This document shows, piece after piece, positions 8,907 through 62,650 of a stretch of DNA of 64,000 nt. The stretch lies in the IMG/VR virus record IMGVR_UViG_3300020029_000569, positions 28,207 to 92,206 of that record. The stretch is one strand, 5' to 3'. The translations under genes and the position numbers were made by a program. Every line of letters begins with the position of its first letter. Within the stretch, counting starts at the first letter, position 1. The DNA is from a virus. Its lineage: Duplodnaviria; Caudoviricetes. Under the pieces are notes generated by a model. The model was not told where the DNA came from. It saw nothing but the letters and a program-made list of their open reading frames with translations, and searched no databases.

Positions 8907-8941
8907 TTATCTTTGTAATCAACAAAAAACTATAATAAAAA

Positions 8942-9052
8942 ATGGAAAATCTAACAAGCAAATCAAAAATCTTCATCGAAGAAGCGTGTGGTAGTTGTGG
9001 TGGAAAGAAACCAAGTACTTACCCAAGACCACCTAAAAAACCAACACGATAA
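8942..9052 (+). CDS. 36-aa CxxC, Pro/Lys-rich peptide (MENLTSKSKIFIEEACGSCGGKKPSTYPRPPKKPTR)
   Basis: Hand translation; TATCTTTG box at 8908-8915 upstream; stop overlaps the next ATG. Confidence 0.55.
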   Translation: MENLTSKSKIFIEEACGSCGGKKPSTYPRPPKKPTR

Positions 9053-9687: not shown

Positions 9688-9689
9688 CA

Positions 9690-10301: not shown

Positions 10302-10318
10302 ACTTTAAAACAAACAAA

Positions 10319-10642: not shown

Positions 10643-10643
10643 A

Positions 10644-11711: not shown

Positions 11712-11712
11712 A

Positions 11713-14700
11713 TTGGAACAAGTTAATATCCCTAAATTCCCTGTCAAATTACAATTAGACGCTGCACATGAAAAGATGCAGGATATAGAAAGTAGGTTTC
11801 TAAAAAATGTCCGTGTACTTCAAAATGCAAACCCTAATAATACAAACCTTAGTGGTAACAATACTAAGACGGGTTCTAATGCAGGTAGTCAAACACCACT
11901 ATTATCAAACAAATTAGTTGATAATGAATTTGTATTACCATTAGGGACAAATAAGACTATTGGAACTTATGAAAGTAAAGAGACAAATGAATTGTATTGG
12001 TTTGTTTGGAACTCAAATCTTCAACATACTGTAAACGTAATTGACGGGATTACCGAACAATGCTATACCGTTTTTAAAGGTAGTTGTTTGGAATTTTCAC
12101 TTGATCCAAAATATGCAATACCCGAACACAAAGTCTATCTGCAACTAACTTACGATGCTACAATAATTGACGGGGAACAAGTAAAGACACTTCTTGAAAA
12201 GGAATTGATATTTACAGATGCCCTTAATAACGTAAGGCAAATAAATGTGTTTGCAAGTATAGGTAGTAATAGTTTCACAACGGATTATTTCAAACCCGTA
12301 TTCCCTCATTACAATGCTTGCTGTGATTATATTACACTTGCACCAATAGCACCAATGTATTGCCCACAAGTAGAACTTATTAAAAGGGTTCAAGGTGCTG
12401 ATGGTCATGCTATTGATAAAGAACTGCCAAATCAATTATTCAATAATCCGTTGCAAATTGCATACAACTTTGGATATGTTGATAATAGACCAAGTAGTGC
12501 AAGTCCCTATTCGACACCTATTATAGTTGGGGGGACTGATTGTGCTGACCAAAATCCTGAAACATTACCAAGATGTGCAAAAGTTAAGTTTTGGGCGGGT
12601 AATGCTTTTGTAAACCTTATTAATATTTATTTCAGAAGCGCACCTAATGGGAATTGGTATTTGTACGATACTATATTCAAACATAATTGCCCTGACGAAA
12701 ACGTACATTGGTGGGAGCGTACAGAAGCGTGGAATGACTTTAATTACAACGAAGAAGATAACACCATTGAATATACATTTTGCGCAAATAAAGAATGTAC
12801 ACCAATAGACCAATCGCTATTTGAACACATTGAAAATAATATACCTTTTGCATCAGTAGCACTAAGTCCCGCAGGTAATAATCTATTACTCGCAAATACT
12901 TTAGTAGGTAGCGATAACCTAACTTGCGAACAAGTAAGTAGTTTTAGTATATCGGTTACACCGCAAGAAAGTGATGTTTGTGAAATACCAAAAAGGCAAA
13001 TTAAAATCTACATGATTATCAGAAATGATAGCAATGATGGGCATGGACATGGTAATGAATGTCAGTTTTTATTTGGTAATTCAAAAGGTGGCAACCAACC
13101 TATTGATGGTAGATTTTACTTTGGCGGTTTTGGTTGGAGAAGAAACCCTGCAACTACACAAATGAGAGTAGCTATTGACGGTAGAAGTGGTTGGGATAGT
13201 TGGAAAGGGTATAAACAATATGTACCTTCAACAATAGAAGAACAAACAGGTGGTTTCGTAGGTTATTTAGCAGGAACAAACTTCGTTTCAATATCAAGCC
13301 AAGTAAAATATTTTGACGGTAATTGTGATGTAGAAGAATTAGGAATTATATATCGTGATTTATCTACAATGTATAATCCAAATGGAAGTTTTGATAGCCT
13401 TGTAGAAGCATTAAAAGATGGTGAATATCTAATACTTCAAGAATTTGTTTTTGAAGATGTACCCGCAGGAAAATATGTATTTAGAGTAGCAGGGCATAGG
13501 TCAGGAATGGATAACGGATTTGAACAAACAAGTTCATACGTTTATGGGAGTGAAGCAATAACACCATGTGCAGTTGAAAGTGGAGAATGTGTTACACCCG
13601 CAATAAGAAATGATTACGAATGGACTATTGACGTTTGCGAATGTGATTACAATAGTTTGAATGATGGTTATTTAATGAAGTTATTAGACCTTACTTATCC
13701 TGATTTTGAAAACGATTTAAGGAATGTAATTACATATAATTTCGTAAGAGAAGTGTATGTTTATGAAGATGAAAATAATTCAATCCCATTTGAAAAACAA
13801 CAAGCAAACTTCGAGTTTGGGAAATTTAAAGACAAAATAACAGGAATTGATGTAACCGTAGATGGATTTGAAGTTGGTGGTGTACCGTTATTATTAATAG
13901 ACCCATTAACAACGAATATAGCAGGAATAGGATTCCCCATACCATGTCCACCTGCCCCTTTATTACCATTTGCAGGTATGTTAGATACGCCAAGTGGAGT
14001 AGAAAATACAACATTAAGAATTACAGACCATAACGGATTTGTATTTCATAGAGAACAATTTTGGAGATGGAGATTATTTTTTAATGTGCTTAATTGTTTA
14101 CCTTTTGACATGACAGCGCAATTTGGAGAACCTACATTAGGAACATTTAGCATTACTTATACGGATAAATGTTATAACCTTAATTTTAAAGATGTACAAG
14201 TAGGGATAACAAAAGTTCAACCACCTGTAACACTATTGAATAATAAAGGGTATAAAGGTTTATTGGGTACAGTATCAGTAAGTACAGGTACAGCAGATGA
14301 TGAGTGCAATAGATACCTAATAAAAGGTAATTTAAAAGATACAGACGGTAATGCTTTAGTAGGTGCAAATATTGGATATACAGGTAGCCAATTCGTAATG
14401 ACTGATGGGTTTGGTAATTTCAGTTTGATAGCACACCAAAATACTTCATTTGATAGAAGCGATTATTTCATTATTAGTAATGTAGGTAGTGCTTGTACCA
14501 TAGTATGTGTAGATAGTGAGGACTGTACGTTATGTTGTGAAGATACATACCAAGAAATAACTTTAGATGATACTCCTTGTGTATTATGTGAAAAGTTAGA
14601 AATTGATATGGGTGATTTCGTATTTAAGAAAATTAACTTTCCCGATAGAGGATTAAAAGGTAGATATGGTATTGGAGGTGTTGGTTGGGATTGTTATGGA

Positions 14701-28700: not shown

Positions 28701-29412
28701 TGGTAAATTAGGTGCTATTGAATCCGCAGCACCAATATTAAATTCAGTATTCTTTTCTCCAAGATTAATTGCATCGAGGCTTAACTTATTAAATCCCTTG
28801 TACTATGCTCAATTACCACCATACGCCCGTAAAATGGCATTAAAAGATATGACTAAATTTATAACTTTTGGTGTTACATTATTGGCTTTAATAAAACAAA
28901 CGTGGGGGTGTCCTGATGATTGCCCCGAATGTACAGATTGCGCCAATATCGAATTAGACCCAAGAAGTACTGATTTTGGCAAAATACGAGTAGGTAATAC
29001 AAGGTATGATGCATGGGGTGGCTTTCAACAGTACGCAAGGATAATAGCGCAAATGATAACGGGGGAAGCAAAATCTTCAACAACGGGTAACGTCAGAAAA
29101 ATAGATGGTGAAGGTTTGTTTGGCAAGGATAGAGCCGATGTTTTAGGATCATTTTTTAGGGGTAAATTAGCACCTGTTCCTGCATCTATTTTAGATATTG
29201 TATCGGGTAGGAATATTATTGGAGAAAAAGTAGATGCAAAAATGATAGCAGAAAGAACCCTATTACCTCTAATATACAGTGATGTTAAAGAAGCAGTAAA
29301 TGAGCAAGGAATTAAAGCATTAGCAACAGTAGGATTGCCCGCAGCATTTGGTATCGGGGTAAATACATATACTCCAAAAAAATCAAAATACGATAAAGAA
29401 GAAACTAAATGA
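19720..29412 (+). CDS. Giant internal virion/polyvalent-type protein
   Basis: 3230 aa; helical/coiled-coil; N-terminal duplicated ~30-aa motif; C-terminal DPRSTDFGKIRVGNTRYDAWGG domain. Confidence 0.65.
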   Translation: MPIKKTYQLGNEKFDIPVEETQAFLADNPDAVELSSFVVGKDTFDIPLPEVESFLADNPDAKETFGAVKKKETPILSPNKPKAEYPIASGLSSGSIPQSPTQSTPTVQSNGQSQKSSFWKDAITATKENIAQQGKVNRPIKEDIFTQNISGVKSPIEVASKPQKKAIKVNLNEQQQKEEDYKQSLRDKINSGIPLDIEETKYVKKAFGKIAPQIGSLSVAEINQGLFDANKKNTQQRRDELLKEHEFADVNNRIKNGEVSKEDLQIAQDNGLIPPFLKSEQAEQLRVNWNADIKNAHAEIDNALSNNISSIVQNQQTENDRIDALKAGIRSENYYRKEDTPQRIAHIKDMENELFQLETKRKREDDYLNSLVDNTIKESQRDIMMMGGFEFDKDNRGLLTEKGRAEVAKAVEDYVAKQPASKQFLLNYKNIRKESSLKYLVSPLISSQFKTSDVTKGNAYLEEVVARTAEILPKYFKNYYKSVDEISKDLPKEAKGLVKQVAGIEGGTFDNNFRPKLLNEQEKVAAVNTLKFMEMKGDVDSQNAKFEQVVNTPQVKSVLGQELTDLENKYNNKEINGATFKNERLKLLYLNPQTKSLAEQYIQSVTNAQNKYEKDVNDYLKSIQPDFAKYTKIDNKGNIVSIAGMKPEKFASVMTELQSAKQVSEINATKEVIQDREQRGNEAMGEPTDMKIIQQGFTSGLNNMYTARAKWLYDQTGIDFFNDARIGGEMVLNTANQPNESTFAKDNFTLEAGDWMGALNPAYILHTASSSAPYMMEAMGTGIGIGGIAKNVLLEAGLGEGVALSRSGRLIQKSLAGASGGSQDAFSTMVSNYNDLVKEGFSVKDADRISKEAFVKEVVPDMLFSGIGMEGLFRATAKPTLKNVLKRTATTFLEQIPEGAQEAIQGYALEDAKGTKENIFNYALEDKDGFNNLMGGFSGGLGSGTVVSAVGLAKDTYGWNKLYNISTSDMQDAVRYSAVANMVNNPSDIKSQSALDMMKLSMDDYRKVYMETPETDKLAKDKARQDYSNSLRTYAYAKEYNRQAQKSNVEDIHADYKAHNRAVANSYQKLADNAEEANKKTYQKQADHYTQLADKAEYGQQTPIYAFETNTGRVFITESTAKTLAEGSILDKNDKFNDAVKNGVITGIQVIDDSETNKKLTEKFAEAQKKKAPPIAPIISEEQENQIDNSNTTQGIGVVESNGKFTVVNPNGTKEVFDTKDEADARALEIANPKTENKAVENIISIEDRKRKDLFPDESEFADVIGESGKNSNISSYREVNGIGISEYTNPDNGLVDVIMSGTSDNDYVGYVRIYENGKPTERWTSKMENKSGNKENFKTMISEVQKLLPQGHEYTEKTNISLDGLRVYANQLNRGYEIATDENGDAITNNVELNNATLEALQGAKTESEVSSLYDKKTGITKEEFDKIKDKINSLIPNTRVLFNSSNGSVIIKLPVLKSKTQNATQNTEIASAESTTTIGQNELPQTEGTVNENVTETQKPISATLEGKPITIEKTETGYTYTTAKGIVEEVSETEHQENIADNSLVIPKTTPDEKIVNDNTFTRDDMKSVSDGTGLAKKGAEVMTTDKVESNLRVGDKVTFFAEKERSGVWDGKSIKDKDGNPWGVMGILADTNGWIRNDTKIEESKKEAVVSSTDAIEVPTTTDTPTAETATKGEPERISQPIELDPNITSPLNTEQDAIQKSETEGGVLRTEQPKLELQSVGEGNTQEQTATTESEAKKETITPIQRITGNKDAVTLSGLTEKERQQQIAERDNSLKLSKEKEAESNLAGQVRRFNEMRRNDAKRPRLLNDIRKASTEQGFEVKYDGKGIEVLKKTKKGKPTKINSYSSEVGRRSTTNEKALHERSEAVQDLYVKLMDLGIDLDLRNSDDNSRFSESQIESAITDIENGIPSRQANEILNKVEALAETGKLEVGDKVSGYKSIPIDELITEAEELRSEELFKDLTNDEVFELYSNELLASNETDNIINQEYERINNEGAVSSTPETSTTDSSTANEETSDEKGTNEATYETKETDVVESASKNIFNETKESISKKIKSVQEKISKAINDGISKWGSKKGYYGEEYGDQNEKEINIPNYTFSDKRNVEGSEYKEDFDNYRKLTTEAQKLHELLDAVNPKLESESSKNLKKRLGSIAFNFSSNSDTDKILLSKEVDNILKELESRDENVDGEKLLSDYYNADADESQIQQMKNNSAEITELIKSNTPTKLIGIVPEKISESFDKLADKILALRSKGDSLKTDITLGLKDAALTEIASLIRDIGTVADKVAEVIKAINKVLSKPEYKDLNKDEIRNEVLSAINPISDANKKYLDGVIKNIEDGKTTLEEEIKDIQDDLPKRYADKYIKYLNDNYTPKQENKKEKTDNTKTEAKETEVLSEEDNQAGIAHRLTEETRKELGLPEYEKETITDAELDGMADAEIKNGYNIKKLVTKMAKGVLPTALEQTIMKKYLASLEAQIEKNPTNESINDYKTAVEASDAIGSEIGRSLRSRRGGIIKDDSIAAYFLTELESSGVDELTEAQKNKVQKEFNDIQEANRKLQEKIAQLEIENAKILADKAIAKEAKTKSKKEDLKKQKEDIKESIKQKLKEARSQLSSTPVPYLNEILAITPDVAKLVKVYAEEGIIKLDEIVDNIHAIIKENSDNITKKDIIDIIAGKYNERKQTRSDIAKQLLDLRTQANLVGKLESLENGIEPKTETKKVERNKEISSLRKKINENYLTKLSSAKNTIQNQIDKLREDLSTGNFLDKQENQELKLDKEAIALKDELIKLKKERDIRLLRQQYQNRSLKQKAVDSFLEIINVPRTIMSSMDFSAPLRQGLIASISHPTVAFKAFGEMFRQAVSQKRFDRWFNDIRESELFEIMEKSGLYVAAPHDLRLSAKEEQFMNNLAEKIPFIGGAVRIPQSVPLIGGKKIGGLIKGSERAYVSYLNKMRVDLFTQGAQVLESMGKTYDNSPKEYEGLASFVNNSTGRGKLGAIESAAPILNSVFFSPRLIASRLNLLNPLYYAQLPPYARKMALKDMTKFITFGVTLLALIKQTWGCPDDCPECTDCANIELDPRSTDFGKIRVGNTRYDAWGGFQQYARIIAQMITGEAKSSTTGNVRKIDGEGLFGKDRADVLGSFFRGKLAPVPASILDIVSGRNIIGEKVDAKMIAERTLLPLIYSDVKEAVNEQGIKALATVGLPAAFGIGVNTYTPKKSKYDKEETK

Positions 29413-29618: not shown

Positions 29619-32041
29619 TAAGTTTCCATTTCCTTTTTAGCTTGTTCTTGCTGAATGTTCAGTTCTGTTTTTTGCTGATTTTCCTGTAAACGATTTTGAT
29701 TAGTTTTATCCTTAACCTCAATTTGTCCTTGTGTTTTTAATTGAGTTTCTAAGGCTAATATCCTTGCTTCTAATGCAGCATCTTCTTGTTTTTGTTGGGA
29801 TGCAATTTGTATCGCTTGCGCTTGTGCTGCTTGTTGTTGCTGACCTTGTATTTCCATTGCACGTTTGGCATTCTCGATATTTATCCTTTCTTGTTTTCGG
29901 ATAGACATAGTAACAAACGCTTTTGCAAGTTTGAAGTTTGGAATATCTTGCGCTTGCAAGGTAGTTCCTTTTGGTACTACTCTTGTCGCTTCATACTGAA
30001 CACATAACGCCATTAGTTGTATTCTCTCTTGCGTGGAGGGTGCGTTTTGAATTTGCAGGGTACATCTTTGAATAGGCATATCTTTATACACTTCTAACCA
30101 CACAGTACCTTTAGTTCCTATGAGTGCTTTCATTTCTTCTGCACGTTCTGTTTCGGGTTCTCCGTTCTTATTAAATTCAGTAATCACTTGCTGATTATAG
30201 TACAGCATTCTTTGTCCGAATTGTTTAAGGGCAAACGTATATGCTTCTTCAATACTTGCTGTACTGTAATCACTTGTTTGGTTTGCTAATTCAGTACCTT
30301 TTTGTGTTTGTCGCGGTTTTGGGTCTTGACCTAATCTACTTGCAGGTACGCCTAATGCCATAAGCATTGTATTATACACACTAAACATTTCCTGCATTAA
30401 ACCTTGCAAATTAAGAAGGATTTTATTTTCCATTATAAACGTAGGTCTATCCAACCTTTGTTCGTCATTATCTCCTGACCTTAATTTGAATACACCTCTA
30501 CCTGTAAGTACATAGTTTCGGATAATCTTTTCAGTAATGCCCTGTAAACTTAGACTTGTAATATCATGCCCTTGTTCTCTCATTAAATCTTCTTCTTCTG
30601 CTTTGATTTCTTCTGCAAGTTCACGGATAGTTTCTTCTGCAAATGCTACACCCTCTGGGATAAAGTTTGCAAGTGTATTAAGATATTGATTATACAAAAT
30701 GTTCAACCTTAAAAAGTCCCCTTGTTGAGCATCATAGAAACTTTGACGCTGCATATCCTTGTAGATAATAAGACTGAAATCTGCATTTTGAAGATTAGTG
30801 CCGTGCCTGTACATATCCTGCAAGTCCCCTAAGTCAAAGATAAAACTTTCTTCATTATCAACTTTAAATCCACTAATTAAAGGGAGGTAGTAGAACTTTT
30901 TAATTGTATCGTAGTACTTATCTGTTTTTTCATCATAGACGTGCTTTTTAACTTCAAAGTATCCTAATTGAATATAAGTATTCATTAAAGCGTAATTGTA
31001 AGCATACCAATTATTGTACATCCCATTAGGGGTAAATGTATTTTGGAATTGGTAGGCAACGGGGAACTCACTTCTTGTATTGTAATACATATTTCTATTT
31101 GTTTCATAGACAAGTTTGCAAGTTTCGGGACTTAATTTGCCGCCTACCATTTGCATAAAAGTTGACCATGTAACGGTTTGAACATAGTACCAATAATCCA
31201 TATCAGCACCATTACGTCTGTAAAAGTTTGAAGTATAGATAGCAGCAGGGTCAATGTATTGAACCATAGGTAATCCCGTGACTACACTTGTGTAAAAACG
31301 ATAAGTCAAAGCATTAACTTTCATAAAGTCGCTTATGATTAAGGGACTTACATTAGTAAGGAAATCTGAACTATTAAGGTAGAACGATATAAGTTCCTCA
31401 TGTGAAATTTCCACACCGTCCTTTAGCATATCTGCTTCATTCAGCAAGTTAAAATCCATATCGTCAACTGCTTCATTTTTAATGCTGTCAATCAGACTAA
31501 GGGATTCATTTGCTATTTCATTTCCTTCTTCATCTATTTCGAGGTTGGTATCTTCATCATACGGTGCTTCATTAGTCATTTTTTTTATGTAGTTGACTAC
31601 TTCTAATAATGCCCGTCTTGTTTTGATTTTAAGTTTTTGCTTTTCTTTTTTGGAAACGGATAGTTTATCACTACCACTCCCTACTTTTAATTCAATAGGC
31701 ATTCCCTCAATATTCTTTTGGATAATCATATTGACTGCATGAACTAATGGGGAAATCCTCCAATCAGTACGCATAAGGTCTGCCTTTTGAGATATTGGAA
31801 CATTCTCATTAGGTTCAAAATATCTTTTCATTTCCGCTTCATCCCCAATTCCTAAATCAATGCCACGATATTTTGCTAAAGGCTGTGCAAATGGACTTGA
31901 ATTAGTATAGATATACGCCCAACTAAGGAACTGTGCCGCCCACCTTTCATCTACTTCCATGTAAGCATCAGCGATAATATTTTGTGGGTTTATTGATGGA
32001 TTACTCGAAGAACTGTTATTTTCTGAGGATTTTTTTGCCAT
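29615..32041 (-). CDS. Portal protein (crAss-like size)
   Basis: About 808 aa from the likely ATG at 32041; Q-rich coiled-coil C-terminus; LGVPASRLGQ segment typical of P22-like portals. Confidence 0.65.
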   Translation of the reverse strand: MAKKSSENNSSSSNPSINPQNIIADAYMEVDERWAAQFLSWAYIYTNSSPFAQPLAKYRGIDLGIGDEAEMKRYFEPNENVPISQKADLMRTDWRISPLVHAVNMIIQKNIEGMPIELKVGSGSDKLSVSKKEKQKLKIKTRRALLEVVNYIKKMTNEAPYDEDTNLEIDEEGNEIANESLSLIDSIKNEAVDDMDFNLLNEADMLKDGVEISHEELISFYLNSSDFLTNVSPLIISDFMKVNALTYRFYTSVVTGLPMVQYIDPAAIYTSNFYRRNGADMDYWYYVQTVTWSTFMQMVGGKLSPETCKLVYETNRNMYYNTRSEFPVAYQFQNTFTPNGMYNNWYAYNYALMNTYIQLGYFEVKKHVYDEKTDKYYDTIKKFYYLPLISGFKVDNEESFIFDLGDLQDMYRHGTNLQNADFSLIIYKDMQRQSFYDAQQGDFLRLNILYNQYLNTLANFIPEGVAFAEETIRELAEEIKAEEEDLMREQGHDITSLSLQGITEKIIRNYVLTGRGVFKLRSGDNDEQRLDRPTFIMENKILLNLQGLMQEMFSVYNTMLMALGVPASRLGQDPKPRQTQKGTELANQTSDYSTASIEEAYTFALKQFGQRMLYYNQQVITEFNKNGEPETERAEEMKALIGTKGTVWLEVYKDMPIQRCTLQIQNAPSTQERIQLMALCVQYEATRVVPKGTTLQAQDIPNFKLAKAFVTMSIRKQERINIENAKRAMEIQGQQQQAAQAQAIQIASQQKQEDAALEARILALETQLKTQGQIEVKDKTNQNRLQENQQKTELNIQQEQAKKEMETY

Positions 32042-46384: not shown

Positions 46385-47191
46385 TAACGGTCTGACGCTA
46401 TACGAAGGCAGGGAATAAGATGCACTCCCTTTCAGCCTTGCACAAATGATAAATAGACTTGTTTATTTGAAAAATTATATTTATCTTTGTGGTATGAAAA
46501 ATTGTTACGTTTACATACACAAAAAAGCAGACACGAAAGAAGTGTTTTACGTTGGAATAGGAAACCAATTAAAATATAGGAGAGCTTATCAGGTTACTGC
46601 AAATCGTAGAAGCAAAGAATGGGCAAGGGTTGTTGAGAAACACGGAGTTGAGGTTGAAGTATTTGCGGATAATTTAACAAGAGAAGAAGCTTTTGAAATA
46701 GAAATTTCTCTTATTAAAAAATATGGCAGAATAGACTTAGGCAATGGTTGTTTAGTGAATATGACAAAAGGTGGAGATGGTATTTATGAATTATCAGAAG
46801 AAGCTAAAAAACGAAATCCGAGAAATAGGGGGCAGAAAAGAGCAGAACACGCAACAAGAATTACTAAAGAAAAACTAACTGGTAGAGTTTTAAGTGAGGA
46901 AACAAAACACAAGATGAGGTTGTCTAAATTAGGTAAAAAACAATCAAAAGAGCATTTAGAAAAGAGAAAGCAAGGTTTAAAAAACACACATTATAAGGGT
47001 AGGACAATTTTAAATACTGAAACCAATGAAACATTTAACTCTATTTCAGAAGCAGCAAGGTTTTATAATATTGAAATTTCTACACTAAATAGAAAGCTAA
47101 ATGGCAAAACCAAAAACGATACGAATTTAATTATTAAATAAAGAAACGCTCACTTTAGCAGTACGCCCCTGCTTTTGTATAGCGTATGTTA
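46385..47191 (+). repeat. attC-like site 1, interrupted by a GIY-YIG gene
   Basis: TAAC ggtctg ACGCTATACGAAGGCAGGG (46395-46413) ... CCCTGCTTTTGTATAGCGT (47167-47185) at GTTA. Confidence 0.75.
46494..47141 (+). CDS. GIY-YIG homing endonuclease with NUMOD3/NUMOD1-type DNA-binding repeats
   Basis: YVYIH..FYVGIG..R..E..LVNMTKGGDG; LSEETKHKMRLSK; FNSISEAAR; own TATCTTTG box at 46482-46489. Confidence 0.88.
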   Translation: MKNCYVYIHKKADTKEVFYVGIGNQLKYRRAYQVTANRRSKEWARVVEKHGVEVEVFADNLTREEAFEIEISLIKKYGRIDLGNGCLVNMTKGGDGIYELSEEAKKRNPRNRGQKRAEHATRITKEKLTGRVLSEETKHKMRLSKLGKKQSKEHLEKRKQGLKNTHYKGRTILNTETNETFNSISEAARFYNIEISTLNRKLNGKTKNDTNLIIK

Positions 47192-47214
47192 TGGGGCGTT
47201 TTTAATCGAAATTT

Positions 47215-47496
47215 ATGAACACATACGAAATTCAAAAAGACCTTCAAAAGGCACTCGAAAACATTGATAAGAACGATTATATTCTTCGTTCACTAATCGC
47301 TCACTTGGAAGAACAATGTACTGAGGAAGAAGTAAAATTGGTTGAAGATAAAATATTTGAACTTGAACCGAAAGAATATGATAATAGGGAAGATTTCTTA
47401 GAAGACTATCAGCCAATTTTTGATTTGGTTGAATTTCCTTTCAAAGACTGCTTTCGTCTTTTTGACAAACGGCAACTTAATTGGGATGCTCTGTAA
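47215..47496 (+). CDS. Cassette A: acidic hypothetical protein
   Basis: 93 aa between GTTATGGGGCGTTTT and AAAATGCCCTATAAC. Confidence 0.7.
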   Translation: MNTYEIQKDLQKALENIDKNDYILRSLIAHLEEQCTEEEVKLVEDKIFELEPKEYDNREDFLEDYQPIFDLVEFPFKDCFRLFDKRQLNWDAL

Positions 47497-47505
47497 AATG
47501 CCCTA

Positions 47506-47598
47506 TAACGTTTTGCGGCTTTGTGTCTGTTTGCCCCTTGCACAAAGTTTCAAGTTACCACAAATGCTGATGGGGCAAATAGCACAAAACCGCTGTTA
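47506..47598 (+). repeat. attC-like site 2 (93 bp)
   Basis: TAAC gtttt GCGGCTTTGTGTCTGTTTGCCCC ... GGGGCAAATAGCACAAAACCGC t GTTA. Confidence 0.8.
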
Positions 47599-47626
47599 GG
47601 CGTATGTATTTAAAAACTTTGACGAA

Positions 47627-48286
47627 ATGATAAAGCACCCTGCAACGTACACAAATAGTTTCATTCCAAAATTTGCTGAACTGCTTATTGGATGTGAAAA
47701 CGTACTTGACATTTTCGGAGGCATTGGAAAACTTGCCCTGATAAAAGAACACGGATTTACTGGCAAAGTAATCTGTAATGAATTAGAACGAGAATGGGCG
47801 GAAACATCACCGTATAATGTTGATGAATGGCATATTGGAGATGCTGCGAATATGCAGTGGGCTGAAAGTAACTCTTTTGATGCAATATGCACAAGCCCGA
47901 CCTATGGCAATAGAATGGCTGACCACCATAACGCAAAAGATGGAAGCAAAAGAGTTACTTACAAACATTTTTTAGGGCGGGATTTGAACGAAGCTAATAC
48001 TGGTAGAATGCAATGGGGTGATAAATACCGAGAAAAGCACTTGGAGATTTACAAAGAATGTGCAAGGGTTCTAAAAAATGGTGGGCTTATGATTGTGAAT
48101 GTTTCCGACCATATCCGAAAAGGGCAAGTTGTGAATGTGGTAGAATGGCATAAGGAAGCACTAACAAATTTTGGAATGAAACTTATAGACGAAATAAAAA
48201 TTGAAACACCGAGAATGGGATTTGGGCAGAACGCTAAAAGCAGGGTGCAACACGAATGTATCTTGGTCTTTCGGCATGGCGTATAA
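47627..48286 (+). CDS. Cassette B: SAM-dependent DNA methyltransferase (N4C/N6A-type)
   Basis: LDIFGGIG SAM motif then TSPTY catalytic-like motif; stop codon is the TAA of TAAC. Confidence 0.8.
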   Translation: MIKHPATYTNSFIPKFAELLIGCENVLDIFGGIGKLALIKEHGFTGKVICNELEREWAETSPYNVDEWHIGDAANMQWAESNSFDAICTSPTYGNRMADHHNAKDGSKRVTYKHFLGRDLNEANTGRMQWGDKYREKHLEIYKECARVLKNGGLMIVNVSDHIRKGQVVNVVEWHKEALTNFGMKLIDEIKIETPRMGFGQNAKSRVQHECILVFRHGV

Positions 48287-48409
48287 CGTTTTGCGTGTAT
48301 AAGAAGTGGCGGATTAGAAATCCAAAACTTTCAGCAAACGCAGAACTTTGATAGAATGACAAAACTTTAAATTAACCAAAAAAACCGCCATTTTTTATAC
48401 ACGCTGTTA
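48284..48409 (+). repeat. attC-like site 3 (126 bp)
   Basis: TAAC gttttg CGTGTATAAGAAGTGGCGG ... CCGCCATTTTTTATACACG ct GTTA. Confidence 0.85.
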
Positions 48410-48512
48410 TAAGCTGGTGCGGTTTATTAACGCAGAATTTGAATCAAAGAACGAAACCTTTTTCTTTTCTTTTTTGAGCGATGGCAAAAATAAATTTGAA
48501 AAATTTAAAAAT

Positions 48513-49355
48513 ATGATTGATATAAACAAAAATTACAATGAAAGCAATTTAGAAACAATGGCAAAGATGCCTGATTGTTTTGTAGATTTAACGGTAACAT
48601 CACCACCGTATGATAATTTAAGAACCTATGAGAACGATGACTACTTAACTTGTGGTGAGTTTGAAGATATGGTTAAGGAGCTTTGGCGAATTACAAAAGA
48701 TGGTGGTGTAGTTGTTTGGATTGTAGGTGATTCAGTTAAAAACGGAAACGAAAGTGGGACAAGTTTTTATCATGCTTTGACTTTTAAGAAGTATGGTTGG
48801 AACTTATTTGATACTATGATTTACTTTAAAAATGGCGGTCTAAATTCAGGTGCGAATAACTCATACATTCAAAAGTTTGAGTATATGTTTGTTTTTTCAA
48901 AGGGTAAAATAAAAACAACAAACATTATTGAGGATAGACCAAACGAACACACAAAGCCACGAAAAAAGAAAAAACGAAACCCTGATGGCACATTTAGAAT
49001 ACAGGAAGTGCTAACGAAAGAACAAGGCAAGAGATATAATATTTGGTGTGTAAATACAGGAATACCGCACTCAACCCAAGACAAAATCGCTTATGAGCAT
49101 CCTGCAATATTCCCAGAAGTACTTGCTAATGACCACATAATAAGTTGGAGTAATGAAGGTGATTTGGTTTACGACCCTTTTATGGGAAGTGGAACAACTG
49201 CTAAAATGAGTATTCTAAATAATAGAAATTGGATTGGAAGCGAAATATCTTCTGAATATTGTGAGATTATTGAAGAACGTATTAAAAAAGCGTGGGAAGA
49301 AAAAAGAAAAGAAAAAGATTTACAAGCAGGAACTCTATTCGGAGACGAAATGTAG
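48513..49355 (+). CDS. Cassette C: beta-class N4C/N6A DNA methyltransferase
   Basis: TSPPY, HPAIFP, DPFMGSGTT; likely ATG at 48513. Confidence 0.92.
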   Translation: MIDINKNYNESNLETMAKMPDCFVDLTVTSPPYDNLRTYENDDYLTCGEFEDMVKELWRITKDGGVVVWIVGDSVKNGNESGTSFYHALTFKKYGWNLFDTMIYFKNGGLNSGANNSYIQKFEYMFVFSKGKIKTTNIIEDRPNEHTKPRKKKKRNPDGTFRIQEVLTKEQGKRYNIWCVNTGIPHSTQDKIAYEHPAIFPEVLANDHIISWSNEGDLVYDPFMGSGTTAKMSILNNRNWIGSEISSEYCEIIEERIKKAWEEKRKEKDLQAGTLFGDEM

Positions 49356-49365
49356 CACTTGCTTA

Positions 49366-49435
49366 TAACGTTAAAACTACACGCTGGTTGCCTATTTATT
49401 CCAATGCTTCGGCAACTAGCTTGTAGTGATTGTTA
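49366..49435 (+). repeat. attC-like site 4 (70 bp)
   Basis: TAAC gttaaa ACTACACGCTGGTTGCC ... GGCAACTAGCTTGTAGT gatt GTTA. Confidence 0.8.
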
Positions 49436-49542
49436 GTAGCTGTTTATCTAATTTACATTTATTTTGAAAATATTTGTAATTTTATTAGGTTATACAAAAA
49501 TTAGTTGTATATTTGTATAACAAAATCAAACAAATACAAATT

Positions 49543-49767
49543 ATGAAAACATCAACTTACACTTACCAATTTACAAACGGAACTTTTACAATCACAAAAG
49601 GAATAAGAACAAAATTTGATTGGTTTGTTGAAGTAGAATTAAATCCAATTGAATGTGATGGATATGTTGAAAAGAGATTTATAAAACTAGACCAAAATTT
49701 ATTTTTAACTTTAAAAAATGCAAAAGAAACCACAATTAAATTACTAACTAAATTTAACTTATTATAA
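49543..49767 (+). CDS. Cassette D gene 1, hypothetical
   Basis: ATG at 49543 after a TATATTTG box at 49508-49515. Confidence 0.6.
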   Translation: MKTSTYTYQFTNGTFTITKGIRTKFDWFVEVELNPIECDGYVEKRFIKLDQNLFLTLKNAKETTIKLLTKFNLL

Positions 49768-50180
49768 TGAAACTAATTCCAATGACTAATTTTGTTTTCC
49801 AGCAAAAAGAAAAATTAACAGATATTTACGGTAATGCAAAAGATGTGTTAGAAATTGACAAATCAAGAATAAATTTTATTCACAGCGTTTCAAATTACGC
49901 AAAGTTCCTAAATGAAACAATTTCACTAGGAATGCTAGTTCCTTGTGATGAAAAAGGAATTGAAATAATTATAGATACTGAGCACCGAGAAGATAGCACA
50001 AGTTGGTCACCTGATGAAATTGAACAATATAAAAAAGCTGAAACCGAAATTTATTTAAAAACAACAATAGATTTAGATACTGCTAAATTTCACGTTAAGC
50101 AAAAAAGAACAATTGAATATTTTACCTCTTTTAATATTGAAATATCCGAGTATGCTATTAAAAAATTTCAATTAGAATAG
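49767..50180 (+). CDS. Cassette D gene 2, hypothetical phage protein
   Basis: 137 aa; MKLIPMTNFV..NYAKFL..LGMLVPCDE. Confidence 0.65.
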   Translation: MKLIPMTNFVFQQKEKLTDIYGNAKDVLEIDKSRINFIHSVSNYAKFLNETISLGMLVPCDEKGIEIIIDTEHREDSTSWSPDEIEQYKKAETEIYLKTTIDLDTAKFHVKQKRTIEYFTSFNIEISEYAIKKFQLE

Positions 50181-50182
50181 TT

Positions 50183-50350
50183 ATGCAAAGACAATCAATA
50201 ATAGTATTTATTCAAGGCGATAGAATAGAAACGTATGGAAACTTAAAAAAGTGCTGTGAATGTGAGAACTTGAAATATCACACTTTAGCACGTTTAAAAT
50301 TTCCAATTCGGCTAAATGATGTAGTTATACACAAAACGCTCTTTAAATAG
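50183..50350 (+). CDS. Cassette D gene 3, 55-aa putative DNA-binding protein
   Basis: Hand translation MQRQSIIVFIQGDRIETYGNLKKCCECENLKYHTLARLK... Confidence 0.55.
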   Translation: MQRQSIIVFIQGDRIETYGNLKKCCECENLKYHTLARLKFPIRLNDVVIHKTLFK

Positions 50351-50354
50351 CTAC

Positions 50355-50481
50355 TAACGTATCGGTGCTATACGATGTGGCGGATTTTTAGTACTAAAGT
50401 CCAATACGAAGCACCAAAGTTGAATTTAAAATAAATGTTTAATCGAATCACGTCAGCCGCCATATTGTATAGCACTTGTTA
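50355..50481 (+). repeat. attC-like site 5 (127 bp)
   Basis: TAAC gtatcg GTGCTATACGATGTGGCGG ... CCGCCATATTGTATAGCAC tt GTTA. Confidence 0.85.
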
Positions 50482-50512
50482 GCGGATGCCGTTTCTTCAC
50501 AATAATTTCAAA

Positions 50513-50749
50513 ATGGAATACAAAGCACAAGAATTAAAAAAAGATTTAATTACAAAGCGTTGCATTGATAACGATATGACAATGGATGAAGCTTGTAAAG
50601 AAATAGGAATTTCAAAAGCTACATTATCAAGGTTGGAAAAGTCAAAACTGCCCGATGTCGAAACTCTTGGTAAGGTATGCACTTGGTTAGGGACAGAGCC
50701 AAATAAATACTTTGTCATTGTTCGCAAGCGTCAAGACGGTTTCCGCTAA
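50513..50749 (+). CDS. Cassette E: XRE-family HTH regulator
   Basis: MTMDEACKEIGISKATLSRLEKSKLPDVETLGKVCTWL; stop in TAAC. Confidence 0.85.
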   Translation: MEYKAQELKKDLITKRCIDNDMTMDEACKEIGISKATLSRLEKSKLPDVETLGKVCTWLGTEPNKYFVIVRKRQDGFR

Positions 50750-50871
50750 CGGTCGAGTATTGCCGAAGGTGGGGCATTATACCACTAATGTTTAATTGAA
50801 ATACAAAACTTGATAATATGAAAAATGTTGATTTGAAAAACGAAACCCCCACTTGCGGCAATACTTTGTTA
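50747..50871 (+). repeat. attC-like site 6 (125 bp)
   Basis: TAAC ggtcg AGTATTGCCGAAGGTGGGG ... CCCCACTTGCGGCAATACT tt GTTA. Confidence 0.85.
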
Positions 50872-51207
50872 TGCCCCGTTTTGGGTCAAACTTACAACTA
50901 CTTTGATGACGGGAAGATTAGACCAAGTAGAAGAATGGAAGTTGTTATTACAGAAATTATCCCATTTAATGAAATTGATGCAGAAACTTTGGAATCTTGG
51001 AAAGAAGAAGTTGAAGAATGTAATTGGCTTTACGCTAAAGAAACTGATTTCTTTGTAAAGGGTGATTTAAAAGTTTCTGATGATAAGATTGAAAAGATAA
51101 TTTTTGTAAGAACTATCAATAATAATGATGGTTGGTTTAGTCTTGGATGGTGGGGAGGTAGATTAGATATTGACGGTTCGTTGAACGCTCTGTTAAATGG
51201 GGCATAA
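50818..51207 (+). CDS. Cassette F: hypothetical protein (start codon inside site 6)
   Basis: 129 aa; stop in TAAC. Confidence 0.7.
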   Translation: MKNVDLKNETPTCGNTLLCPVLGQTYNYFDDGKIRPSRRMEVVITEIIPFNEIDAETLESWKEEVEECNWLYAKETDFFVKGDLKVSDDKIEKIIFVRTINNNDGWFSLGWWGGRLDIDGSLNALLNGA

Positions 51208-51330
51208 CGTAAAAGCATTGCTGTCAGTGGCGGAAATTGAAGCACAAAAGTTAAATTATGCAGAAAAGTTTATTTGAAAATATACAGTTGAATGAAGTAC
51301 ATCAGCCGCCATTGCAGCAATGCAGTGTTA
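51205..51330 (+). repeat. attC-like site 7 (126 bp)
   Basis: TAAC gtaaaa GCATTGCTGTCAGTGGCGG ... CCGCCATTGCAGCAATGC agt GTTA. Confidence 0.85.
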
Positions 51331-52271
51331 GCCGCAGTACTTTGTTATTAGGTGATTGCTTAATTGAAAGCGATAAAATTGAAAGCGGAACAGTTGATTT
51401 GATATTGACTGATTTACCTTATGGAAATATGGGAATGGAAGGTACAAATCACGGAATGACAGGGAAAGTTAGCTGGGATGAAACTATAAACCCAAGTGAT
51501 TTATTTGTGGTTGCGGATAGAATTTTGCGAAAAAACGGCAAAATGATTTTGTTTAGCCAAGAACCATATACAAACGAATTGATAAGTAAGGCAATACCTA
51601 ATTTACCATATAACTATAAGGCTTTTTGGGAGAAAGACCATTTTGCCAACGCTTTAAATGCTAAAAAAGCAATGTTAAATTATGCAGAAGAAATACTTAT
51701 ATACAGCAAAAACAACCCAAAACACGACTTTGAAGGATTACACCCATTGAGAGTATACTTTTTAACTCAAAAAGAAGAAAGTAAATTAACCGATAGCGAT
51801 ATAAAAAAAATACTTGGTAACGGAATGGGTGGGCATTACTTTACTAATGGCAGTCAGTTTTGTTTACCTACTTTGGCTAATTATGAAAAACTACAAACTA
51901 CTGGATTTTTTAAGCGTGATTGGAATGAATTAAAGCAAATAGATACGGAATACCGAACCGAACTATTAAAGCAAATGAATGACAAATACCCAAGCACCTT
52001 TAACCTATGGGAAGGCAACAAATACAAAAGCAACATCCTGAAATACAAAAAGGATTACAACGGCTACCACCCCACACAAAAACCTGTTTTATTGCTCGAA
52101 GATTTAATCAAGACTTTCAGTAATGAAAATGATTTAGTAGTTGATTTGACAATGGGAAGCGGCTCAACTGGTGTAGCCTGTCGAAATACAAACAGAAGAT
52201 TTATCGGCATAGAGAAAGATGAAAAGTATTTTGAGATTGCAGTACGGAGGGTGTCTGCGTATTGCGGCTAA
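51258..52271 (+). CDS. Cassette G: beta-class N6A DNA methyltransferase (start inside site 7)
   Basis: TDLPY, HPTQKP, DLTMGSGSTG; stop in TAAC. Confidence 0.92.
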   Translation: MQKSLFENIQLNEVHQPPLQQCSVSRSTLLLGDCLIESDKIESGTVDLILTDLPYGNMGMEGTNHGMTGKVSWDETINPSDLFVVADRILRKNGKMILFSQEPYTNELISKAIPNLPYNYKAFWEKDHFANALNAKKAMLNYAEEILIYSKNNPKHDFEGLHPLRVYFLTQKEESKLTDSDIKKILGNGMGGHYFTNGSQFCLPTLANYEKLQTTGFFKRDWNELKQIDTEYRTELLKQMNDKYPSTFNLWEGNKYKSNILKYKKDYNGYHPTQKPVLLLEDLIKTFSNENDLVVDLTMGSGSTGVACRNTNRRFIGIEKDEKYFEIAVRRVSAYCG

Positions 52272-52388
52272 CGGTTTCGGGCTTGGCGAAGTGGCTGAAC
52301 CCGAAGCTAAACTGGAACACAGAACTTTAAAATTAAGAACGAATGATTGATAGAATTACCGAACAGCCATTTCGCCAAACCCGTGTTA
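52269..52388 (+). repeat. attC-like site 8 (120 bp)
   Basis: TAAC ggttt CGGGCTTGGCGAAGTGGCTG ... CAGCCATTTCGCCAAACCCG t GTTA. Confidence 0.85.
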
Positions 52389-53149
52389 TGTGCAGGGCGG
52401 TTGATAACCTTGAACTCCTTTTGTCGCAACCTGATGAAAGTGTAGATTTGATTTACTGCGACATTCTTTATGGAACTGGTAGAAATTTCGGTGATTACCA
52501 AGACTTAAAACCGATTAGAAGCGAAATTGAAGCACATTATTTGCCACGATTAAAAGAAATGCACCGAGTATTAAAACAAAACGGCTCAATTTATTTGCAA
52601 ATGGATTATAGAATATCCCATTGGATTAGGTTGATAATGGATGATATTTTTGGGTATGATAATTTTGTAAATGAAATTATATGGTGCTACACTATGCCAA
52701 ACAACAACAAAAGGAGATTTAATGCAAAACACGATAATATATTTTCTTACGCAAAAACTAAAGACTATACATTTAATTGGCAAAGCGTATTAACAGATTA
52801 TTCCGAAAGTAGTAAAGAAAGAGGTAAGTATGGAAGTAACTCAATGATGGGTAAAGCCGACAGCCCTTTATCTAAAAACGGAGGTAAAATTATGGAAGAT
52901 TGGATGGTAATACACACACTTAAAGGCAATTCAAAAGAGTATTCAAAATACCCAACCCAAAAGCCAAAAGCATTAATTGAACGAATTATAAAAGCAAGTT
53001 CAAACGAAGGAGATACGGTTGCAGATTACTATTTAGGTTCAGGAACGACAGCAGTAGTTTGTAAAGAATTAAACCGAAATTTTATAGGTTGTGACATTAA
53101 CCCAAAGGCTATTGAAATAACGAAAGCTCGATTGAATGGTGGTCAGTAG
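52343..53149 (+). CDS. Cassette H: beta-class DNA methyltransferase with variant catalytic motif
   Basis: LIYCDILY (in place of DPPY), YPTQKP, DYYLGSGTT. Confidence 0.85.
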   Translation: MIDRITEQPFRQTRVMCRAVDNLELLLSQPDESVDLIYCDILYGTGRNFGDYQDLKPIRSEIEAHYLPRLKEMHRVLKQNGSIYLQMDYRISHWIRLIMDDIFGYDNFVNEIIWCYTMPNNNKRRFNAKHDNIFSYAKTKDYTFNWQSVLTDYSESSKERGKYGSNSMMGKADSPLSKNGGKIMEDWMVIHTLKGNSKEYSKYPTQKPKALIERIIKASSNEGDTVADYYLGSGTTAVVCKELNRNFIGCDINPKAIEITKARLNGGQ

Positions 53150-53275
53150 CATTGCACATAACTACTCGCTTGCTCTGTAAAACTACCTATATAAGTACTA
53201 TATGGAGTTATAGGCGCACCAATGGTTTGTTAATGACTATCACAATTATTCCGTAAATCCGCAAAAATTTAAACA

Positions 53276-59008: not shown

Positions 59009-60052
59009 TTAATATTTAATTTGCGGTTTGTTCTCGTTTCCGTCTCTATCCAATACTATATAATTATCAAAAATTGTTTTAGTGTCCTGTATGTCTGTGT
59101 AATCTACGCTCCATTTCCACGCATTGCCCGGAATACTCATCCAATTTAGTACCGTTACGCTTTTGGCATTTAATGATTTAACGGGGTAGAATGTGCCTCT
59201 ATATTTAACGTGTGTACATTTCATTTCTTTTAAACTGGCTTTACTGTGTATTACAATACCGCAACTTAATAGCTTCTCTTTGAAAAATGCTAATTTGTCG
59301 TTTTCTTCATTGATTTGTACCTGTAGTTTTTCCTTTCTTTCATCTGAAACATAAGCAGGATTTTCTTTTGTGCTTTGATGTCCGCTTACTCTATCCCAAT
59401 ATCCTACGCCTGTAAAGTATCGGTTTAATTCTCTTAATCTGGCTTCTACTTCCTTTATTCTGTTGCCCAAATAAACGGGGTTTGAATACTGCGCCCCCTC
59501 TGCTGTATATTTGGCGGTTTCTGCCCTGTCTTTGTAGTATGATGCTTTTTTATCCTCTTCAATGCTTTTGCCCATTCTATTATGGTTTCTTTCAATCAAT
59601 GCTCTATGTCTTTTCTCGCTGTGGTGTCCAATTTTGATTGGTTCGCCTAAACTTAAAAAGTCTTTACCCTCGTTTGATGCTTCATAGTACTGTTGGCTTC
59701 TCTTTTCTGCGTTCTCTGCATATTTTTCAAACCTTTCTGCCCTGTTTTCTGCTTTCTCTTGCTGCACTTCTATTTGTTCTGCAAAACTCAATTTTTCGCC
59801 CCTTTCGCCCTGATAAATTGCGCCTAATTGATTGCAGACATTTTCAGCACTCCATGTATTATTCTTTGCCCTGCTTACCCATGCACCGGCATAAGATGAA
59901 AATAGAAAATTACTTTTGATCATTTTCTTTTGATCTTCTGGCATACTTATATAGTCTGCCTTTTCAAATTTTAATTCTATTTTCCCAGTTTCAAGGTTTT
60001 TATAATATTGTCTTGTTTCTGTGCCTGTAGTGGCTGTGTTTGTTGTTTGCAT
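59009..60052 (-). CDS. DUF3560-domain protein
   Basis: LGEPIKIGHHSEKRHR signature. Confidence 0.8.
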   Translation of the reverse strand: MQTTNTATTGTETRQYYKNLETGKIELKFEKADYISMPEDQKKMIKSNFLFSSYAGAWVSRAKNNTWSAENVCNQLGAIYQGERGEKLSFAEQIEVQQEKAENRAERFEKYAENAEKRSQQYYEASNEGKDFLSLGEPIKIGHHSEKRHRALIERNHNRMGKSIEEDKKASYYKDRAETAKYTAEGAQYSNPVYLGNRIKEVEARLRELNRYFTGVGYWDRVSGHQSTKENPAYVSDERKEKLQVQINEENDKLAFFKEKLLSCGIVIHSKASLKEMKCTHVKYRGTFYPVKSLNAKSVTVLNWMSIPGNAWKWSVDYTDIQDTKTIFDNYIVLDRDGNENKPQIKY

Positions 60053-61957: not shown

Positions 61958-62650
61958 TTATGCCCAAAGTTTTTTGGCTGTTTCTAATTTCTTTGTCAAT
62001 TCGTTAACGTCTTTTTTAGCATAACTCATACTAAATGAGTGTTCCTGTTTTCGTTCTCCGCATTTGTATTGTCGGTGCAATTCTATTGCCTCCTCAAGTT
62101 TGAACTCAAAATACTCTATACTTTCAGGAAGTGACAAATCTATTTTATTCGCCATCTTTTCCCAATATTGCGCCCTGCTTTCATATCCTTCTACTTTTTT
62201 GCCTTCTTCAACACTTTTGTGCATACGGTTGTGGTTTCTTTCAATTAAAGCTCTATGTCTTTTTTCGCTGTGGTGTCCTATCTTAATAGGTTCCCCCAAA
62301 CTTAAAAAGTCTTTGCCCTCGTCTGCTGCTGCCCAAAGTTCGTTACTCCTTTTTTCTGCATTAGCCGCCCAACCTTGTAATCGTTCCGCTTTTGCCTTTG
62401 CCCTTTCCTGTGAATTAAAGCCGTCAGTACGGGTAATTGAATAGTAATAGCTCCCATCTTTGCCCCGTCCCACAAAATTGTGTACATAACATTCATGCTC
62501 TTTGCCGTATTGAGTAGTTAATGTTATTACCTCGTCTTTTTGGTGTTGCTCGGTGCATTTTGCTACCCATACATTGGGGCAATATTTCGCATAAGTATTA
62601 ACGCCTGTTTGTGTTGCTGTGCCGTCTATGGCTGTTGAGTTGTTGTTCAT
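61958..62650 (-). CDS. DUF3560-domain protein
   Basis: NTYAKYCPNVWVAKC start; LGEPIKIGHHSEKRHR. Confidence 0.85.
   Translation of the reverse strand: MNNNSTAIDGTATQTGVNTYAKYCPNVWVAKCTEQHQKDEVITLTTQYGKEHECYVHNFVGRGKDGSYYYSITRTDGFNSQERAKAKAERLQGWAANAEKRSNELWAAADEGKDFLSLGEPIKIGHHSEKRHRALIERNHNRMHKSVEEGKKVEGYESRAQYWEKMANKIDLSLPESIEYFEFKLEEAIELHRQYKCGERKQEHSFSMSYAKKDVNELTKKLETAKKLWA

Follow-up and report, generated by a model that had tools for sequence, protein, structure and literature searches.

Hairpin sites in a phage gene array

The window analyzed here is a 64,000-nucleotide (nt) stretch, the right-hand 64 kb (positions 28,207 to 92,206) of the 92-kb IMG/VR phage record IMGVR_UViG_3300020029_000569, whose ends are inverted terminal repeats. 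The closest DNA relatives of the window are phages of Flavobacterium, Cellulophaga, and Polaribacter. From 46385 to 53162, every gene is on the + strand, and between the genes lie hairpin sites that start with TAAC and end with GTTA. These sites, the strand on which they fold, and the way in which they may move genes are the subject of this study. A strand-symmetric search for TAAC and GTTA with complementary arms was run over the whole 64 kb. It returned seven strong sites, all of them in the array region, and none elsewhere. An eighth site, the first of the array, is split by a gene in its loop. The sites and the genes and open reading frames (ORFs) that accompany them are as follows.

46385..47191, + strand: site 1, a split hairpin site with a GIY-YIG gene (about 46497-47141) inside its loop
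47506..47598 (93 nt), + strand: site 2, with G47510-T47594 (TAACG/TGTTA), G47529-T47580, C47519-A47589, and a bulged T in the 5' arm
48284..48409 (126 nt), + strand: site 3, with G48288-T48405, G48303-T48394, and G48306-T48391; top row of the alignment described below
49366..49435 (70 nt, short loop), + strand: site 4, with G49370-T49431, G49386-T49417, and a C-T mismatch at 49382/49421
50355..50481 (127 nt), + strand: site 5, with G50359-T50477, G50374-T50466, and G50377-T50463
50747..50871 (125 nt), + strand: site 6, with G50751-T50867, G50768-T50853, and an A-G mismatch at 50766/50855; the loop contains the start of ORF 50818-51207
51205..51330 (126 nt), + strand: site 7, with G51209-T51326, G51227-T51312, and a bulged T in the 5' arm; the loop contains the start of methyltransferase ORF 51258-52271
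52269..52388 (120 nt), + strand: site 8, with G52273-T52384, G52291-T52370, and C52282-A52379; moves with the downstream methyltransferase gene 52343-53149
53149..53162, + strand: terminal half-site GCATTGCACATAAC, which closes the last cassette, and with it the array, on the 3' side; an attI-like end
47215..53149, + strand: cassette genes, comprising four N6_N4 DNA methyltransferases, a helix-turn-helix protein, and small ORFs
47627-48286, 48417-49355, 51258-52271, and 52343-53149, + strand: the N6_N4 DNA methyltransferase genes
50486-50749, + strand: the helix-turn-helix protein gene

The arms of site 1, after TAAC at 46385 and before GTTA at 47191, follow the pattern of the family, with two G-T pairs three positions apart. 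Metagenome contigs carry this site without the insert, with 46453 joined to 47145. At the other end of the array, the terminal half-site is followed by TAC... and forms no hairpin. The two ends of a cassette are complementary to each other in seven of the eight window cassettes, and across the site family these ends follow the consensus ATTGCnnnTAAC / GTTAnnnGCAGT. The exception is the methyltransferase cassette 47599-48283. There, GGCGTAT occurs as a direct, not an inverted, repeat (after GTTA from 47599 and before TAAC up to 48283), and the +7 base (47605) is T, not G.

The hairpin loops are A-rich (AT skew +0.24) and carry a conserved motif and, often, the start codon of the downstream gene. 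Where they do, the ORF of the downstream gene begins with an ATG in the upstream hairpin's loop and continues across the 3' arm (at 50818, 51258, and 52343 in the window and at 3015 in the related locus L001).

G-T pairs and covariation in the hairpin stems

To count mismatches, the 3' arm of each site was reverse-complemented and aligned with the 5' arm, and the pairs were read on the + strand. The inner stems of the window contain 9-11 G-T pairs in the seven intact sites and two more in the split site, compared to two C-A pairs, C47519-A47589 in site 2 and C52282-A52379 in site 8. In the cassette-end stems, all seven intact sites have a T 7 nt before TAAC and six of them a G 7 nt after GTTA, and the cassette-end G-T is present in seven of the eight cognate pairs. 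This recount agrees with the original prediction, which was made from the sequence alone and gave about 19 G-T against about two C-A pairs on the + strand, the latter in sites 2 and 8. A further G-T had been missed by it: the G after TAAC stands opposite the T before GTTA in all window sites. Since the base composition predicts a G-T to C-A ratio of about 1:1 (G x T = 0.055, C x A = 0.054), the skew is not due to chance.

The window sites are related to one another and, therefore, their counts are not independent. Two sets of relatives were gathered. The first consists of 80 viral loci fetched through the last methyltransferase of the array, in which the finder yields 177 sites (127 non-redundant) compared to nine in shuffled sequence. 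Oriented by coding strand, the 127 non-redundant sites hold 228 G-T pairs, 81 C-A pairs, and 56 transversion mismatches; the per-site means over 118 non-redundant sites are 1.82 G-T and 0.61 C-A. The second set, gathered independently via a recombinase gene, adds 85 non-redundant sites with 145 G-T and 42 C-A pairs (1.7 and 0.5 per site). Thus, the predicted bias persists in the larger sample at about 3:1. The ORF-based orientation heuristic was ambiguous for 36 of the 177 sites. It called three sites (in L057, L055, and L049) reversed, and these look mis-oriented rather than truly reversed since their long spacer is on the other side.

The spacers are asymmetric as well, with 5 nt after TAAC in 111 of the 177 sites and 1-2 nt before GTTA in 137, in keeping with the 5-6 and 1-4 nt previously read from the window. 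Bulges in the relatives fall on the + 5' arm in 38 cases and on the other arm in 18. Within the window, the bulged T is confined to sites 2 and 7, the same two sites at which a clear bulged base had been reported.

The hairpin itself is established by covariation, as examined in a MAFFT alignment of 59 sites. Paired cells make up 91.8% of the alignment compared to 65.3% in shuffles, and the covariation score is 0.607 compared to 0.143; in both cases 0 of 500 shuffles reached the observed value, and with the partners slid the score is at most 0.11. Compensatory double changes occur in 18 of the 20 inner-stem pairs. Two columns of the alignment are invariant or nearly invariant G-T pairs (59/59, the apical one, and 57/59 rows). 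In addition, one column pair (16/128; 48298/48399 in site 3) is T-A in 58 of the 59 rows amid freely covarying neighbors, which looks like a sequence-specific contact.

The G-T skew comes from a few near-invariant positions and not from a diffuse tolerance of wobble. Among the 118 non-redundant sites, an apical G-T, with G on the 5' arm and T on the 3' arm, lies 6-7 bp below the stem tip in 112 and is never Watson-Crick. A second G-T or a bulged T follows 3 or 5 bp below it in about 70% of the sites. The TAACG/TGTTA G-T is present in 114 of the 118 sites and in 80 of the 85 sites of the second set. A T is found at -7 in 107 of the 118 sites and a G at +7 in 95. About 30% of the sites have a C-A at pair 4-5 from the stem base, and some have an A-C directly above the apical 6 bp. 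Elsewhere in the stems the pairs are Watson-Crick with few exceptions. The fixed irregularities are all of the transition type, so that what is a wobble on one strand becomes a mismatch on its complement. Watson-Crick pairs are avoided at these places, which suggests selection for inequality of the strands and not simply a tolerance of wobble.

The 4-nt bulge after TAACG was compared among copies of one core. In 17 copies of the core of site 52269-52388 (loci L004-L035) that are otherwise about 90% identical, it varies freely (GTTT, GGTT, TTAT, ATTT, TTCG, and others). The bulge bases in these copies follow neither the upstream cassette nor the core, so they are either unconstrained or remade at each exchange.

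Folding energies of the two strands

Folding was calculated for both strands. With the seven intact window sites in array form, the differences in DNA ensemble energy (+ minus - strand) are +0.3, -0.1, -1.0, -3.5, -1.9, -2.3, and +0.1 kcal/mol. Four sites favor the + strand by 1-3.5 kcal/mol, and the other three fold equally on both strands. The DNA fold of site 4, for example, is -12.4 kcal/mol on the + strand and -11.6 on the - strand. Joining the cognate cassette ends, to mimic an excised circle, gives the + strand the advantage at 7/7 window sites, by a mean of 3.5 kcal/mol, and an unbroken hairpin is predicted in which a 4-nt bulge comes right after TAACG.

The same direction is seen in the relatives. 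With DNA parameters, the sense strand folds better in 95-103 of the 118 non-redundant sites, by a mean of 1.7-2.0 kcal/mol (Wilcoxon p < 1e-13), and with RNA parameters the sense-strand advantage is 2.8-5.7 kcal/mol. The earlier claim that folding favors the sense strand is supported.

Breakpoints and the mobile unit

Homology between loci was followed in blocks, defined as stretches of at least 150 bp. The right ends of these blocks fall at TAAC in 89 cases and at GTTA in 7; the left ends fall at TAAC in 144 and at GTTA in 76. The last methyltransferase cassette, site 8 with its gene, was found in 17-18 contexts. Identity covers the upstream site from its TAAC onward, including the hairpin, continues across the gene, and is lost where the next site begins, at TAAC. 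For site 8 in 17 other contexts, similarity begins at TAAC and ends at ...GCACATAAC past the gene. Across the core families there were 43 changes to a distinct left flank compared to 17 for the right flank, and the left count was never below the right.

Exact and near-exact copies give the same boundary. An activated-sludge contig matches 50355-50746 with 0 differences, begins exactly at TAAC, and has another gene order, and metagenome contigs with 0-2 differences start or stop at TAAC. The core of site 2 is 90% identical to a core of Flavobacterium phage lillamy9-1, and the flanks diverge exactly from TAAC and GTTA outward. One core occurs joined to either of two genes, and the junction is precisely at GTTA. 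Since all partners share the bases of TAAC(G), the breakpoints place the cleaved phosphodiester only to within this motif.

Since homology breaks mainly at TAAC, the mobile unit is mostly a site plus its downstream gene, the reverse of the classical unit of a gene plus its attC site. The dominant TAAC breakpoints also point to the sense strand, since a tyrosine recombinase acting on a hairpin cuts the outer box on the 5' arm, between 5'-AA and C.

A tyrosine recombinase beside related arrays

Profile searches of the 92-kb record found no tyrosine (PF00589), serine (PF00239), or HUH Y1 (PF01797) recombinase. Pfam searches of the ORFs flanking the array and of lillamy gp001 returned no recombinase either. 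A search for shared neighbors over 37 array-bearing loci found no widely shared flanking gene; a recombinase cluster was present in only three of them and was recognized as such only through Pfam. The cluster is a PF00589 protein of 259-289 aa whose gene starts about 40-55 nt past the terminal TAAC of the array. Its best match is the archaeal XerA model (170-206 bits, cut-off 220). The IntI model gives 139-155 bits (cut-off 265), in two pieces with the middle of the model skipped. The protein is, therefore, Xer-like and below the curated cut-offs of IntI, XerC/D, and XerA. It matches without the stretch of the IntI model between about 180 and 238, which we take to be the place of the insertion that binds extrahelical bases.

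The linkage of arrays to this below-cut-off protein in 49 related viral loci, which were fetched through the recombinase itself, supports the earlier suggestion of a distinct recombinase family. In these loci, 138 sites upstream of the recombinase are co-oriented and four opposite, and downstream the numbers are 0 and 3, with more downstream than upstream DNA searched. Judged by this arrangement, the layout of the sites relative to the recombinase and to the attI-like end is that of a classical integron, and only the cassette genes are reversed. Relatives, thus, have the site family beside a co-oriented Xer-like recombinase gene, and this gene is absent from the window record. Since the window phage is without a recombinase, its array would rely on an enzyme supplied in trans or be inactive.

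Bacterial genomes were also searched. The IntI model gave no match over 301 genomes of the likely host family (the family of G006), a search in which no positive control responded, so that the negative carries little weight. Two metagenome-assembled genomes (MAGs) labeled Flavobacterium sp. and Flavobacteriaceae bacterium contain tyrosine recombinases of 371-373 aa (G006:C16:100842-101660 and G007:C167:979-1794). Their alignments to the IntI model consist of two pieces (about 116 + 95 and 117 + 74 bits), leave out its middle, and stay below the cut-off. A 552-aa tyrosine recombinase on contig C9 of genome G001 was set aside as a prophage integrase. It would lie about 17 kb from the array of locus L090 if, as we guess, C9 is the 215-kb contig with that array. 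Family sites are also present on contigs binned to cellular genomes. A 32.5-kb contig of a Chitinophagales MAG (L089), binned as bacterial, has about 16 of them over 17 kb (43-16634), and one site lies on a contig binned to a Methanolobus MAG (L091), which is probably a mis-binned phage contig.

Comparison with known systems

In a study of 263 classical attC sites, Nivina et al. (2016) reported 1.24 G:T mispairs on the recombined bottom strand and 0.39 on the top strand (PMC5027507). The bottom strand of these sites folds 2.12 kcal/mol better and is purine-rich; its R' box reads 5'-RYYYAAC-3', and its extrahelical bases are close to L'', not on the cleaved arm but on the one facing it (PMC5027507). 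The original prediction took the G-T skew to set the phage sites apart from classical attC sites. This is the wrong frame for the skew, since it appears to mark the recombined strand here as it does in classical attC sites. Indeed, a G:T skew is already known as a mark of the recombined strand (PMC5027507), and what is unusual here is the polarity. The difference from attC lies in the orientation of the genes: the phage site is 5' of its own gene, so the equivalent of the bottom strand is the coding strand.

Classical attC sites recombined by IntI, such as attC-aadA7 and the Vibrio cholerae repeats, have much in common with the phage sites. Both have an inverted core, RYYYAAC ... GTTRRRY (AAC...GTT) in classical attC sites and TAAC...GTTA in all phage sites, and both form an imperfect hairpin of which the structure is conserved and the sequence is not. 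In both, the cassette ends are complementary, a footprint of the circular form, and the last element of the array is an attI-like site, with a tyrosine recombinase gene next to it whose transcription leads away from the array. The G:T skew is of similar size (1.82 compared to 0.61 here, 1.24 compared to 0.39 there), as is the folding advantage of about 2 kcal/mol, and a minority of events occurs on the other side or strand.

Several features differ. The classical attC site is 3' of its gene and its crossover lies between G and TT of R', whereas the phage site is 5' of its gene and its main crossover is at TAAC, and the genes of the phage array point towards the attI-like end. In place of the two-sided unpaired central spacer of attC sites, the phage sites have a one-sided 4-nt bulge, with a spacer of 4-5 nt on one arm and 0-2 nt on the other. 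The extra bases are on the cleaved TAAC-side arm in the phage sites and near L'' on the opposite arm in classical ones. The near-invariant wobble positions, an outer box of about 14 bp with its own wobble, and the loop motif with its start codons are further differences from attC. The enzyme is also different, a 259-289-aa Xer-like protein below the IntI cut-off instead of IntI.

Sites of this family have been published before. Qi et al. (2023) found clusters of attC sites lacking integron-integrases (CALINs) in phages, including Polaribacter phage P12002L (PMC9892861). P12002L carries sites of the window's family between methyltransferase genes, among them the published P12002L_attC1. Of the six sites tested with IntI1, this alone was not recombined (PMC9892861). 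The P12002L CALIN is without an integrase, like the window. At least two attC-type sites with no integrase nearby make a CALIN, so the window, with eight sites in 46385-52388 and no recombinase found, is a CALIN, provided that its sites count as attC-type. Qi et al. (2023) treat the sites as ordinary attC sites, and the polarity, the fixed wobbles, and the Xer-like enzyme are not described there (PMC9892861). P12002L_attC2, which IntI1 did recombine, is no hairpin of this family but the end of the array, GTGCCTAAC and the backbone that comes after it, as seen when the opposite strand is read. The P12002L regions examined were 29150-29260 and 29960-30090 of locus L002. Phage cassette arrays of Bacteroidota with an Xer-like recombinase were not found as such in the literature searched.

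Two other systems are similar in part. At the attP site of the CTX phage, an Xer-type tyrosine recombinase, XerCD, acts at dif on a hairpin of one specific phage strand. A single strand exchange takes place and the product is resolved by replication. In that case, a whole filamentous phage enters the chromosomal dif site by means of the host XerCD, which differs from a cassette array in a tailed phage with its own short recombinase. The PeSL elements of T4-type phages consist of a promoter and a stem-loop that flank shuffled genes, and the shuffling is ascribed to homologous recombination between the repeats. As in the window, intergenic stem-loops bracket the accessory genes of a hyperplastic region and give the downstream gene its expression signals. 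The phage cassettes described here differ from PeSL elements in their exact TAAC/GTTA breaks, complementary ends, and dedicated linked recombinase.

Proposed mechanism and alternative explanations

We think it probable that the sites serve for recombination as folded single-strand DNA, in an integron-like cassette system of Bacteroidota phages. It is the + (sense) strand that folds better and that is most likely recombined, since the folding energy and G-T skew, the TAAC breakpoints, and the recombinase layout agree. This is in line with the original prediction, in which the top DNA strand was one of two candidates, next to the mRNA, for the folded substrate.

In the sense-strand hairpin, the outer stem consists of TAAC/GTTA, then the G-T, plus about 10 pairs from the cassette's two ends in the circle, among which is the T-G wobble at a distance of 7 nt. 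Between it and an inner stem of about 20 bp, the 5' arm has a 4-nt bulge. The inner stem has its near-invariant G-T 6-7 bp below the tip and usually a second G-T or bulged T 3-5 bp lower. On the antisense strand, each wobble position is a C-A mismatch. The wobbles would, in this way, make the strands unequal, and a tyrosine recombinase could pick the sense strand and cut it in the 5' TAAC. Because the cut would be made there, each site would move with its downstream gene. In a more detailed version, about which we are undecided and slightly doubtful, the system would be a "reverse-polarity integron": a short Xer-like recombinase would read the invariant G-T code flanking the one-sided 4-nt bulge to choose the coding strand, the site would precede its gene, and the hairpin would double as mRNA 5' leader, start codon, and first codons. 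An mRNA role, such as a leader hairpin that presents the A-rich start region, could exist alongside recombination.

Several observations weigh against this proposal. The three window sites with equal strands in array form are among them. About one third of the gene 5' ends break at GTTA and not at TAAC, and one core is seen with different downstream genes, so the other side or the other strand also recombines or another process acts. The link between a core and its downstream gene could come partly from selection, since the loop contains ORF starts. Sites and transcription run the same way (136 compared to 5) and, therefore, the sequence cannot separate selection at the DNA level from selection at the RNA level. 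The sole family member assayed so far, P12002L_attC1, was assayed with IntI1 and not with its own recombinase. Finally, the extra unpaired bases, the 4-nt bulge and the bulged T, sit on the same arm as the main crossover; by the classical rule for extrahelical bases alone, the antisense strand would look like the substrate.

For this reason the antisense strand is kept as the main rival, though we consider it unlikely. The fixed positions would then be C-A mismatches, and an AAAAC-type bulge and a bulged A on the 3' arm would be the extrahelical bases read by the recombinase. The bases in excess on the + 5' arm are on the 3' arm of the - strand (38 compared to 18 bulges; a 5-nt compared to a 1-2-nt spacer), a placement that matches the extrahelical bases near L'' of the recombined strand in classical sites (PMC5027507). 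The strict avoidance of Watson-Crick pairs (0/112) suits a needed mismatch as well as a needed wobble, and GTTA-side breakpoints exist (the 76 left block ends). However, the antisense strand folds 1.7-3.5 kcal/mol worse, and, given the polarity of tyrosine recombinases, a GTTA crossover with units of a gene plus its downstream site is predicted, whereas the right block ends favor TAAC over GTTA by 89 to 7. The recombinases of the relatives also lack the stretch of IntI that probably binds extrahelical bases.

An equally improbable explanation is that the G-U skew is selected mainly in the mRNA, where the hairpins would be processing or stability elements or would open an A-rich start-codon loop, and that recombination is indifferent to the strand. 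The co-orientation with genes fits this explanation, as do the start codons of downstream ORFs in the loops, the larger sense advantage with RNA parameters, and the A-richness of the loops, which suits translation starts in Bacteroidota. Stability alone, however, leaves the absence of Watson-Crick pairs at the fixed positions unexplained. The cassette-end T-G wobble joins halves that are adjacent only in the excised circle, and in a transcript a whole gene lies between them. Site polarity is fixed relative to the recombinase gene, and the same skew in classical attC sites tracks DNA strand choice. In Rfam, no family matches the sites; the sole match was a chance snoRNA (E = 0.11).

It is very improbable that homologous or illegitimate recombination at conserved intergenic repeats, without any structure-specific mechanism and much as with the PeSL elements, together with a G-T skew from a mutational bias such as C-to-T deamination of one strand, accounts for the arrays, even if the window phage lacks a recombinase and the 37 array-bearing loci have no widely shared flanking gene, since the breaks are exact at a 4-5-nt motif between unrelated flanks, the 8-10-nt complementary cassette ends covary, the wobbles are position-specific and not spread along the stems, and in 49 loci a tyrosine recombinase accompanies the arrays closely and in a set orientation.

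Implications for integron biology

The site family is a variant of the integron design that has been half-visible in the literature as phage CALINs. Integron biology so far is based on one enzyme family, IntI, and one site design. If recombination of the folded sense strand is correct, a second enzyme lineage beside IntI uses single-strand hairpins, strand choice by G-T pairs, and replicative resolution, and it works with reversed gene polarity and different unpaired features. It would then provide a direct way to split the features of attC sites into those of physics (the wobble asymmetry) and those specific to IntI (the extrahelical bases). It would also explain the swapping of anti-restriction methyltransferase genes by Flavobacteria-type phages. 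Integron-finding tools and the published phage CALIN calls would misorient or miss such sites.

Additional observations

Outside the array, a leftward gene cluster on the - strand encodes two paralogous DUF3560 proteins (59009-60052, 347 aa, and 61958-62650, 230 aa). In four wastewater and activated-sludge metagenomes, the summed contig depth was 10-300x higher on the hairpin cores than on the gene bodies. In run X1, for example, the bin 52150-52383 had a depth of 30467, compared to about 50-90 on gene bodies. The hairpin cores are, thus, abundant repeats common to many phages in wastewater and activated-sludge communities.

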